NCBI GenBank assembly: GCA_964616835.1
Contig: CAZTSG010000004.1
Span: forward strand, 1 to 53,484
Reading direction: 5' to 3'
Source of the DNA: an uncultured Nitrososphaerota archaeon
GTDB taxonomy: Archaea; Thermoproteota; EX4484-205; JAAOZP01
DNA length: 53,484 nucleotides
Below, in pieces: positions 46,948-48,789 of this stretch. Both the position numbers and the translations under genes were made by a program. Under the pieces are notes generated by a model. That model was given only the letters and a program-made list of their open reading frames with translations, did no database searches and was not told the DNA's origin. Numbering within the stretch: the first letter of the stretch is position 1; the number at the start of each line of letters is the position of its first letter.

Positions 46948-47975
46948 TCATAATCCCTCGGGGCCCACGTATACGGTGTCCTCAGCCTCAGGACCCGTGC
47001 CCACTATAGCGACCGGCACCCCAGTCTCGTCCTGAACCTTCTTTAGAAACTCTATGCATCTCTGGGATAGAGACTCTTTTCTCCTGACTTGGAAGCATTC
47101 TGGAAAAAGCACGTCCACCTTGGTTACTGCTATCTGAGTAGCCCCGTTGACCCTGGCTGCACGCTTAGCCATCTGGAAGTTGAATGGCGCAGCCCTCCTA
47201 AGCCTGCCGGTTACAGTACCCCTCTCCACAAAGCCTTTTTTCTCAGCCTCCTCCGGAGAAAGCTCGTTCTCAAGAGGACCCTTGCCGACTCTCGTCACAA
47301 AGCTTTTTAGAACAAGTATGACTTCGTCAACCCTTTTCGGACCTACTCCAACTTCGCTGCAGACTGCTGCGGCAGTAGTGTCCCTCCCGGTTACGTAAGG
47401 ATAAGTACCGTGGTAGAGGCTCAGATAGAAGCCTTGCGTGCCCTCTAGGTGAATCGTCTCACCCCTGTCCAGCGCGGAGTTAACTTCTTCAGACACATCC
47501 GTAACGTACTTTCTTAACTCGGGCAGGTCCCTGACTAGCTTCGCCTTCCTAGCAACCCTGTCTACGAGAGCAGGGGAAACACCTGTGCCTGTGGTTCCTA
47601 TGAACTCCCTGAAAAAGTCGCTACCCCTGTCGGCATCGATATGCTTCTGCTCGATCACGGAAGCCTTCTCGTCGATGAATATTCTCTCCTCGACGCCGAG
47701 CGTTTCAACCTCGCTCATAAACACCTTGGGGTCTATGTTAGCCCCGGCGCCTATGAGCAGCCTTGTCTCAGGAACCAAGAATGCGCTCGGCACAATTCTA
47801 AGCCTGTACGTATTGCCCCTGTAAACTACGGTGTGGCCAGCGTTTACAGAGCCGACTCTCACAGCTATCTTCGGACGCTCCCTAAGTGCCAGGAACGCGG
47901 CGACTTTTCCCTCTAGGGACCTTTGAAAGGTTTTCCCTCGTCGCCGAAGAATCCTGACACTATTACTTTAAGCAT
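46948..47975 (-). CDS. purA: adenylosuccinate synthetase, interrupted by a 20-nt intron (335 aa after splicing)
   Basis: Exon 1 MLKVIVSGFFGDEG(K) from ATG 47975. Exon 2 GKVAAFLAL...NAGHT, GTTGTG, EGTQG, GTYPYVT, GTVTGRLRR. Confidence 0.9.
47913..47932 (-). other. putative BHB/BHL-type mRNA intron AACCTTTCAAAGGTCCCTAG
   Basis: Central helix AGGG/CCCT, bulges AA^A and AG^A, inner stem ACCTT/AAGGT, outer helix GGCGAC/GTCGCC. Excision restores GAC GAG GGA AAG GGA AAA (DEGKGK). Confidence 0.8.
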
Positions 47976-48063
47976 GCTAGCTCACACACGTGCTCCGAAA
48001 CGAGGAGTATAAAGCCTTTTCCATATTGTTTTTAAGCCTGATTCAACCATTTTATTAATAGGT

Positions 48064-48789
48064 TTGAAGATCAAGTACGGATGCTGCGGGTTCCCCCTTT
48101 CAATGAGCAGGTATTTTTCAGAATTCGGCCTCGTAGAACTTCAGTCGACTTTCTACAAGCTCCCCATGGTCAAGACCGCTGAGAAATGGAGGAGCCAAGC
48201 CCCTGAAGGCTTCGAATTCACCTTGAAGGCTTGGCAGGGCATTACGCACCCGCCTGAAAGCCCGACTTGGAAGAGGAGCGGTTTGAGCAGGAGCGAGCTT
48301 AAAGACTATGGTAACTTCAACCCTTCTATAAAGGTTTTTGAAGCATGGGACAGGACTCTGGAGATTGCTAGGAGCCTGGGCGCGAGGATAATAGTTTTTC
48401 AAACTCCTCCTAGCTTCAACCCTTCTCCGAAGAACATCGATAACATGAAGAAGTTTTTCAAAGAGATAGATAGGGGAGGGCTGATCCTCGCCTGGGAGCC
48501 TCGTGGAGAATGGCTGGAGGAGAAGAGCGTTACGAGAAGCCTTTTGGAGAAGCTTGAGTTAATCCATGTGGTAGACCCGTTTTGGGATCAGCCTCTTACT
48601 ACTGGAATATATTATTTCAGGCTCCACGGTCTTGGAAAAAGGTACAACTACAGCTACGAATACACTCTTGAGGATTTGAAAAAGCTCAAGAGACTTATAG
48701 GAGGCTTAAGGAACACGGAGGAAGTATACGTCTTATTCAACAATAAGAAGATGCTTGATTCTGCGAAGCTATTCGCTAGCCTCCTCTAA
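48064..48789 (+). CDS. DUF72 (YecE-like) TIM-barrel protein
   Basis: Motifs VELQSTFY, FTLKAWQGITH, FQTPPSF, WEPRG, YFRLHG, LFNN. Confidence 0.88.
   Translation: MKIKYGCCGFPLSMSRYFSEFGLVELQSTFYKLPMVKTAEKWRSQAPEGFEFTLKAWQGITHPPESPTWKRSGLSRSELKDYGNFNPSIKVFEAWDRTLEIARSLGARIIVFQTPPSFNPSPKNIDNMKKFFKEIDRGGLILAWEPRGEWLEEKSVTRSLLEKLELIHVVDPFWDQPLTTGIYYFRLHGLGKRYNYSYEYTLEDLKKLKRLIGGLRNTEEVYVLFNNKKMLDSAKLFASLL

Follow-up and report, generated by a model that had tools for sequence, protein, structure and literature searches.

A predicted EndA-type mini-intron within the P-loop codons of purA in an uncultured Nitrososphaerota archaeon and its relatives

Among archaeal protein genes, splicing has been shown experimentally for cbf5 (Watanabe 2002 and Yoshinari 2006, as cited in PMC2738675), the transcript of which is cleaved between the second and third residues of the bulge (PMC2738675). 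In a 2009 paper, archaeal pre-mRNA splicing is stated to be confirmed for no gene except cbf5, and according to a 2020 paper, cbf5 is the only additional bulge-helix-bulge (BHB) intron reported in archaeal mRNA besides its own case in a 5' untranslated region (UTR) (PMC7714728). Relaxed substrates are cut by the two-subunit crenarchaeal form of the splicing endonuclease EndA through a lysine of the Crenarchaea-specific loop (CSL) (PMC3241643, PMC12397907), and the CSL-bearing enzyme of A. pernix accepts a bulge-helix-loop (BHL) mini-helix as substrate (PMC3241643). A full-text literature search, with subscription journals, supplements and the annotations of genome records outside its reach, found no paper on an intron in archaeal purA or dnaG. 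Here we analysed purA, the gene for adenylosuccinate synthetase, in a stretch of 53,484 nucleotides (nt) from an uncultured Nitrososphaerota archaeon (positions 1 to 53,484 of contig CAZTSG010000004.1, assembly GCA_964616835.1; hereafter the window), in which 20 nt interrupt the codons of the GTP-binding motif GDEGKGK. An earlier, sequence-only reading of the window had proposed a tRNA-type (BHB/BHL) intron at this place. Comparison supports that proposal: inserts of every length class at one codon, covarying stems, a cut rule that holds in 44 of 44 sequences, intron-less congeners, genes for EndA and RtcB, and the case of cbf5 all suggest that the insert is very probably an mRNA intron of relaxed BHL form, spliced by EndA and RtcB.

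purA lies on the minus strand. Read without splicing, its open reading frame (ORF; 47975-47913) begins at ATG 47975-47973 and encodes MLKVIVSGFFGDEGKPFKGP-stop, with 20 codons before the stop at 47915-47913, and the remainder of adenylosuccinate synthetase is found in another frame, as a 304-amino-acid ORF starting at GTG 47862 (46948-47862, minus strand). Excision of the 20 nt at 47913-47932 (minus strand; AACCTTTCAAAGGTCCCTAG) creates a frame of 336 codons including the stop, that is, 335 amino acids with no internal stop. GDEGKGK occupies residues 11-17 of this product and is present only with the insert removed. This P-loop is essential in the adenylosuccinate synthetase family. Exon 1 (47933-47975, minus strand) codes for MLKVIVSGFFGDEG and the first base of the Lys codon; exon 2 (46948-47912, minus strand) has 321 codons, the first of them split, ends with the stop at 46948-46950 and matches PF00709 (E 3.4e-65). 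The restored motif and the 335-residue length announced by the sequence-only reading were both reproduced, and the spliced protein is collinear with the 335-residue PurA of an intron-less congener, with 274 of 335 residues identical and no gaps. Furthermore, the predicted join in the window species, ...GAGGGAA to AGGGAAAAGTC... with 20 nt missing, is exactly the sequence seen in intron-less congeners.

The unspliced frame, the helices, the bulges and the inner stem of the sequence-only reading were each recovered on the minus strand. The central helix H pairs AGGG at the end of exon 1 (47935-47938) with CCCT of the intron (47915-47918). It is followed by the 5' bulge AAA (47932-47934), with a predicted cut at 47933/47932, and by an inner hairpin h' (47919-47931), in which ACCTT (47927-47931) pairs with AAGGT (47919-47923) around the loop TCA (47924-47926). 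The 5' site is a textbook helix-bulge-helix, closed by H and the intron helix. The 3' site AGA (47912-47914) is part of an internal loop, with a predicted cut at 47913/47912. Since the third base of either bulge is A, moving both borders 1 nt in the 3' direction leaves the product unchanged.

The interruption recurs at the same place in relatives. A search of 41 related genomes gave 30 purA loci; in 14 of them the codons of GDEGK-GK are interrupted between Lys and Gly, and the other 16 have no insert. We then ran an intron-less query against 401 genomes of the phylum. Short-type purA was found in 286 of these, and at least 48 genomes bear the insert; this number is a lower bound because 139 weaker survey matches were checked by pattern only. 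The insert occurs in 6 of the 16 purA-bearing species of the window genus, in 5 of 6 of the sister family (labelled f4 here) and in the one genome of family f2; it also occurs in 24 of 26 purA-bearing genomes of family f11 and in 10 of 10 of f36, and a pattern search added two further genomes in f46. Public records of near relatives are titled Candidatus Brockarchaeota, Thaumarchaeota and Nitrososphaerota, and one f36-like record is titled Candidatus Nezhaarchaeota. In the same record set no insert was seen in four Heimdallarchaeota, in the Njord-, Freya- and Baldrarchaeum records or in many Bathyarchaeia records. From the 53 interrupted loci that were fetched, 44 distinct sequences were obtained.

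In 30 genomes the pattern survey also matched a conserved GGGAAACTGGGG... string, which we take to be 16S rRNA. Its other single hits were set aside, their number being on the order of the reversed-pattern control; the two that were checked lie inside intact ORFs. As a separate observation, two genomes of family f3, in the window's order (G018 and G020), seem to have purA in its long form and not in the short archaeal one, because the match is weak (E about 1e-31) and lies in open frames of 436-459 amino acids.

The inserts of the 44 sequences measure 15, 16, 17, 18, 20, 21, 22, 28 or 30 nt and share one architecture. The 5' bulge is AAA in all 44, and a 4-bp H and an inner hairpin are likewise common to all. 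H is built from the last bases of exon 1 and the last bases of the intron, with the second cut 2 nt past it; directly after H stands the 3' site, which is AGA in 32 sequences, AAA in 10, ATA in one and ACA in one. H reads AGGG/CCCT in 19 of the 44 and GGGG/CCCC in 20, the five others having a wobble or mismatch, and all four of its pairs are formed in 41. Two classes can be distinguished, class A with exon AGGG (Gly codon GGA) and intron CCCT, and class G with exon GGGG (Gly codon GGG) and intron CCCC; the motif and both cut sites are one base further 3' in class G than in class A. By locus, L028/L029, L111-L136 and L151-L152 on the one side and L001-L022 and L137-L146 on the other represent two registers, one base apart relative to the codons.

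The sequence-only reading had proposed comparing purA among relatives for stem covariation, and this comparison revealed it. In class-wise alignments, H is paired in 100% of cells in class G and 96.6% in class A, and five of five inner-stem pairs change on both sides in each class, giving for example GGCG.../...CGCC, AACAGC/GCTGTT, GATGGT/ACCATC and ACC/GGT. The covariation score was reached by none of 500 shuffles, pairing dropped to 35-67% when the partners were slid by 1-3 columns, and from the alignments alone RNAalifold predicted, for both classes, H, the inner stem and the 3-nt bulge between them. With cuts placed two bases into each bulge or loop, GD[ED]GKG[KR] is restored in frame in 44 of 44 sequences. 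As the same site is interrupted in 53 loci with covarying stems, the purA feature is, on this comparison, more than chance.

The genome also encodes candidate splicing enzymes. Two genes have the EndA catalytic-domain fold (PF01974; L147 1474-2037, minus strand, and L148 1246-1806, plus strand). The product of the first, an alpha subunit of 187 amino acids, finds its closest PDB matches among crenarchaeal catalytic chains (E 3.9e-46) and has retained the catalytic His. A gap-free alignment places its K42-P-K44 on K44-P-R46 of the chain from the CSL study, a chain that we take to be the A. pernix EndA alpha subunit, the numbering agreeing with PMC3241643. The second paralog, of 186 amino acids, is 29% identical to alpha; the alignment shows no loop region in it, and Lys replaces the catalytic His. 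It weakly matches NCBI beta-subunit models. The two subunits presumably assemble. RtcB is present (E 1.6e-174), and aragorn placed introns in 15 of 34 predicted tRNA genes; several of the aragorn calls look doubtful, among them a tRNA-Pyl and introns of 300 and 685 nt. The host would then possess the type of EndA that is able to cut relaxed motifs, an (alpha-beta)2 enzyme with the CSL lysine, together with the RtcB ligase.

A splicing route can be proposed from these elements. The purA transcript would carry 20 intervening nt that form the BHL motif together with the end of exon 1, the two-subunit EndA would cut after the second bulge base and two bases past H, and RtcB would join the exons, recreating the Lys codon and the P-loop GDEGKGK of the 335-residue enzyme. 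The unspliced message would yield a 20-residue peptide only. The roles of EndA in cleavage and of RtcB in ligation are our inference, as would be any regulatory use, and splicing control of adenosine monophosphate (AMP) synthesis, which the sequence-only reading had raised, is speculation.

Several observations weigh against such splicing. No closed 3-nt bulge forms at the 3' site: the bases after A-N-A are unpaired with those upstream of H, and the first exon-exon pairing starts 7 nt beyond the site. This pairing is the distal helix between GGCGAC of exon 1 (47940-47945) and GTCGCC of exon 2 (47899-47904), on the minus strand, which the sequence-only reading had taken for the closing helix of the motif. 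The helix is present, and its membership of the motif was rejected as unproven, intron-less congeners also forming 5-6 of its 6 pairs. A strict hBHBh' arrangement, in which the 3' bulge is closed by H and an exon-exon helix, was not found at the purA site. The motif is of the relaxed BHL form and not a canonical BHB, because the 3' site lies in a loop and the nearest exon helix is 7 nt away and not specific to the intron. Thermodynamic support is weak for the short class. In the window the motif lies above the optimum by 1.8 kcal/mol at 37 C and by 0.6 kcal/mol at 70 C, and the minimum-energy fold has at least three of the four H pairs in 20 of 44 sequences at 37 C and in 27 at 70 C. H has a mismatch in 3 of the 44 sequences, and some inner stems are merely 2-3 bp long. 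The genome assembly is 91.7% complete in 125 contigs, which leaves room for a second purA, and splicing is predicted here from DNA sequence. Folded singly, the 71-nt region gave z = -1.81, with 12 of 200 shuffles folding as well and a different structure as its minimum-energy fold; since this single-sequence fold is unremarkable and speaks neither for nor against the motif, the case rests on comparison.

The 3' site without a canonical bulge leads to the first alternative, that the insert is removed by other machinery, either an unknown nuclease and ligase or self-cleavage, and EndA cleavage is indeed predicted here from sequence. However, the geometry is that of known relaxed EndA substrates (PMC3241643), 15-30 nt is too short for a ribozyme, and no Rfam family matches at 47700-48100. 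We consider removal by other machinery highly improbable.

Programmed recoding, in which the ribosome would frameshift or hop over the insert and the RNA would stay uncut, has a precedent in phage T4 gene 60, where a short untranslated gap in the coding sequence, with a hairpin and a nearby stop, is bypassed between matched take-off and landing codons. purA likewise has a short gap, a hairpin at the site and a stop soon after the interruption, and in the window a GAGGGAAAA repeat stands on both sides of the insert. Unlike in gene 60, matched codons are absent in purA or give the wrong product: hopping between the repeated GAG codons would skip 26 nt and produce GDEGKVA, losing the GK of the P-loop, and matched take-off and landing codons are absent in most relatives. 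Insert length modulo 3 is 0, 1 and 2 in 16, 13 and 15 sequences, respectively, so that a single fixed frameshift fails, inserts of all three length classes occurring at the same codon. The in-frame inserts contain TAG or TGA, and read-through would add 5-10 residues and a stop to the P-loop. The 4-bp helix, 3-nt bulge and 2-nt offset are the geometry of the EndA ruler, not a bypass signal. Recoding has, in our judgement, a very slender chance of being correct.

An insert that is never removed would mean a dead gene, or an N-terminally truncated protein started at GTG 47862, with AMP supplied via salvage. The downstream 304-residue ORF with its GTG start does exist, and the assembly is incomplete to the extent given above. 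Nevertheless, the truncated product would be without the whole P-loop, and the inserts have retained their covarying structure. The sequence-only reading had named an intact purA elsewhere, together with decay of this copy, as an observation that would overturn it; a single purA locus was found in the genome, and purB is intact. The downstream frame is intact and conserved in 53 of 53 interrupted loci from four deep lineages. Exon 1 evolves as coding sequence under purifying selection: in the nine codons before the insert, the variable columns in the 44 intron-bearing sequences stand at 1:2:8 for codon positions 1:2:3, with 3327 synonymous against 748 non-synonymous codon differences. Permanent retention of the insert is scarcely tenable on these grounds.

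An assembly or sequencing artefact, or a local duplication in part of the DNA molecules, which the sequence-only reading had feared from the short flanking repeat, has practically no credibility, as five other species of the genus share a 20-nt insert at the same place in independent assemblies with stem-preserving substitutions, four further lineages have inserts too, and the GAGGGAAAA duplication, degenerate or absent in relatives, arises from GK-GK coding and the AGA site.

Returning to the reading of the insert as an EndA-spliced intron, we built a quick maximum-likelihood tree of 134 distinct PurA sequences with 47 intron-bearing rows. The intron-bearing rows form four clades, f11, f1 with f4 (f2 nearby), f36 and f46, and intron-less rows are nested in three of them. 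The fewest state changes on this tree number 8, and well-supported branches force at least 7. Precise loss is the best reading of the nested intron-less genes (L117, L125, L021, L007 and the L008-L014 clade). The inner insert sequences of the four clades have nothing in common beyond the motif, and the one-base difference in register between the two classes argues for sliding or separate origins. On this gene tree, which is unrooted, the four clades may equally descend from one old intron or from repeated gain at one codon. We also looked for copies of the intron elsewhere in the genome, as tRNA-intron transposition might leave; none was found with 3 or fewer substitutions, and three matches with 4 were taken as chance.

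The sequence-only reading had further suggested that more mRNA introns lie hidden in this genome, and dnaG bore this out. The gene (L189 457-1634, plus strand; G000:C28:9756-10933) contains a 29-nt insert at L189 532-560, after ...VEGVVE, and its product matches the NCBIfam DnaG primase model (E 1.1e-107), the profile being entered at position 16. The motif, GTT-GTGG-AAA-stem-CCAC-AGA-AAC, has the same geometry and is a near-canonical BHB, with H GTGG/CCAC, bulge AAA, a 9-bp stem, the 3' bulge AGA and then a 3-bp exon-exon helix. An insert occupies the site in 23 of 30 loci from relatives, with all four families f1-f4 of the order represented; these inserts are 18-41 nt long, cover all three lengths modulo 3 and differ in their stems. 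Of the other seven loci, six have no insert and one could not be assigned.

The cbf5 gene of the window genome (L150 1036-2032, minus strand; G000:C6) is split between GHAGTL and DPGVSG by 13 nt (about L150 1797-1809), within the codon of the catalytic Asp and at the position described for the spliced crenarchaeal cbf5 intron. Its motif combines the exon helix GGGA/TCCC, H CCCT/GGGG and the 3' bulge AGA, and a hairpin loop holds the 5' site. Of 30 loci from relatives, 27 have an insert in this codon (families f1, f3, f4, f7, f8, f12 and f13), and L179 and L180 (f11) and L181 (f14) do not. Inserts among the relatives measure 11-22 nt; these lengths were read from the sequences, a regular expression having mis-set the 5' border in four loci. 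The taxonomic range of the cbf5 insert is wider than the Desulfurococcales and Sulfolobales given in PMC2738675, and some inserts are shorter than the 16-44 bp given there.

These genes stood out from scans of the whole genome. A generic motif scan was uninformative, with 2464 raw candidates against 303 on the reversed sequence. Filtering for fused reading frames left 16 and 45 candidates, among which purA and dnaG alone were convincing, and a mirrored scan left 8, with cbf5 the only convincing one. A candidate in ThrRS was rejected, the gene starting at a TTG inside the supposed intron, as were C5, C4:23988-24031, C1 and C31, which lie in frames open far upstream, and C65, C21, C8, C23, C36 (RtcB) and C35, which have junk-like upstream peptides. 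A further oddity is a radical-SAM activase-like ORF (G000:C30:11280-12066, minus strand; …LIDYPGK…FGCNFRCPYCHN…), in which the first ATG, GTG or TTG start comes 43 codons after the conserved N-terminus. For this place the scan suggested a 16-nt insert, with a junk-like upstream peptide, and the anomaly may reflect an unusual start codon or an unrecognised intron.

Around purA in the window, a TTTATA at 48008-48013 (minus strand), about 35 nt upstream of the ATG, is a possible archaeal TATA box, and TATAC-like strings also occur upstream of purA in L002-L006. A CdvA-like gene (PF18822; 46213-46935, plus strand) is convergent with purA (46948-47975, minus strand), with 12 nt between the stops. 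No tRNA genes were predicted within the window.

If the EndA reading is true, tRNA-type mRNA splicing would reach genes of central metabolism and of replication or RNA decay. The purA and dnaG introns would explain 'frameshifted' or N-terminally truncated gene calls in these lineages, and because introns explain such miscalls, gene finders and completeness estimates should model mini-introns. The purA inserts, at 15-30 nt, would also be natural minimal substrates with which to examine how EndA recognises relaxed motifs when no tRNA body is present, and the dated series of gains, losses and a one-base slide would be useful for understanding how introns arise in prokaryotes. A broader proposition, which we regard as doubtful, is that EndA-type protein-gene introns are recurrent in core genes of Thermoproteota: the purA introns would have been gained independently in up to four deep lineages at the same P-loop codon, with the helix register slid by one base, and introns would persist in purA, in cbf5 (at the catalytic Asp codon) and in dnaG, genes whose unspliced messages encode a dead product. 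Were gain recurrent in this manner, it would imply site-directed intron gain, for example by reversal of the EndA/RtcB reaction or by tRNA-intron transposition, and a splicing-dependent gate that couples production of active enzyme to the state of the tRNA-splicing machinery.

Compared with the systems described so far, the purA insert resembles the BHB intron in the 5' UTR of Haloferax volcanii HVO_1309 in being an EndA substrate, here a predicted one, in mRNA (PMC7714728), whereas the HVO_1309 intron lies in a euryarchaeal untranslated leader and the purA intron within a coding motif. With the relaxed (BHL, HBh') tRNA introns of Crenarchaeota it shares a single closed bulge between two helices, a second cut site in a loop and a similar size range; the tRNA introns depend on a CSL lysine, and such a lysine is present in this genome's alpha subunit (PMC3241643, PMC12397907). 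In contrast to these introns, the purA substrate is an mRNA without a tRNA body, and half of its H is dictated by Glu-Gly-Lys codons.

The closest likeness in a protein gene is to the crenarchaeal cbf5 intron. Both are very short (16-44 bp in cbf5, 15-30 nt in purA), both show the 'unconventional' BHB with cuts, predicted ones in purA, between the second and third bulge residues, both fall in the codon of a catalytic-site residue so that removal is required for function, and in both the lengths need not shift the frame, the spread is patchy with lineage-specific losses, and the hosts have a hetero-oligomeric EndA (PMC2738675). The two also differ. The cbf5 product acts in RNA modification and the purA product in purine synthesis; cbf5 splicing is an experimental result, whereas that of purA is predicted here from DNA; and the purA intron occurs in other lineages, namely Brockarchaeota-titled relatives, a Nezhaarchaeota record and two more families. 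In purA the well-formed half of the motif is H, bulge and inner helix with the 3' site in a loop, and this genome's own cbf5 is the mirror image, with exon helix, bulge and H well formed and the 5' site in the hairpin loop. Taken together, these comparisons point to purA, with dnaG, as the second and third protein genes spliced in the manner of tRNA besides cbf5, the splicing mechanism itself being the one already known.

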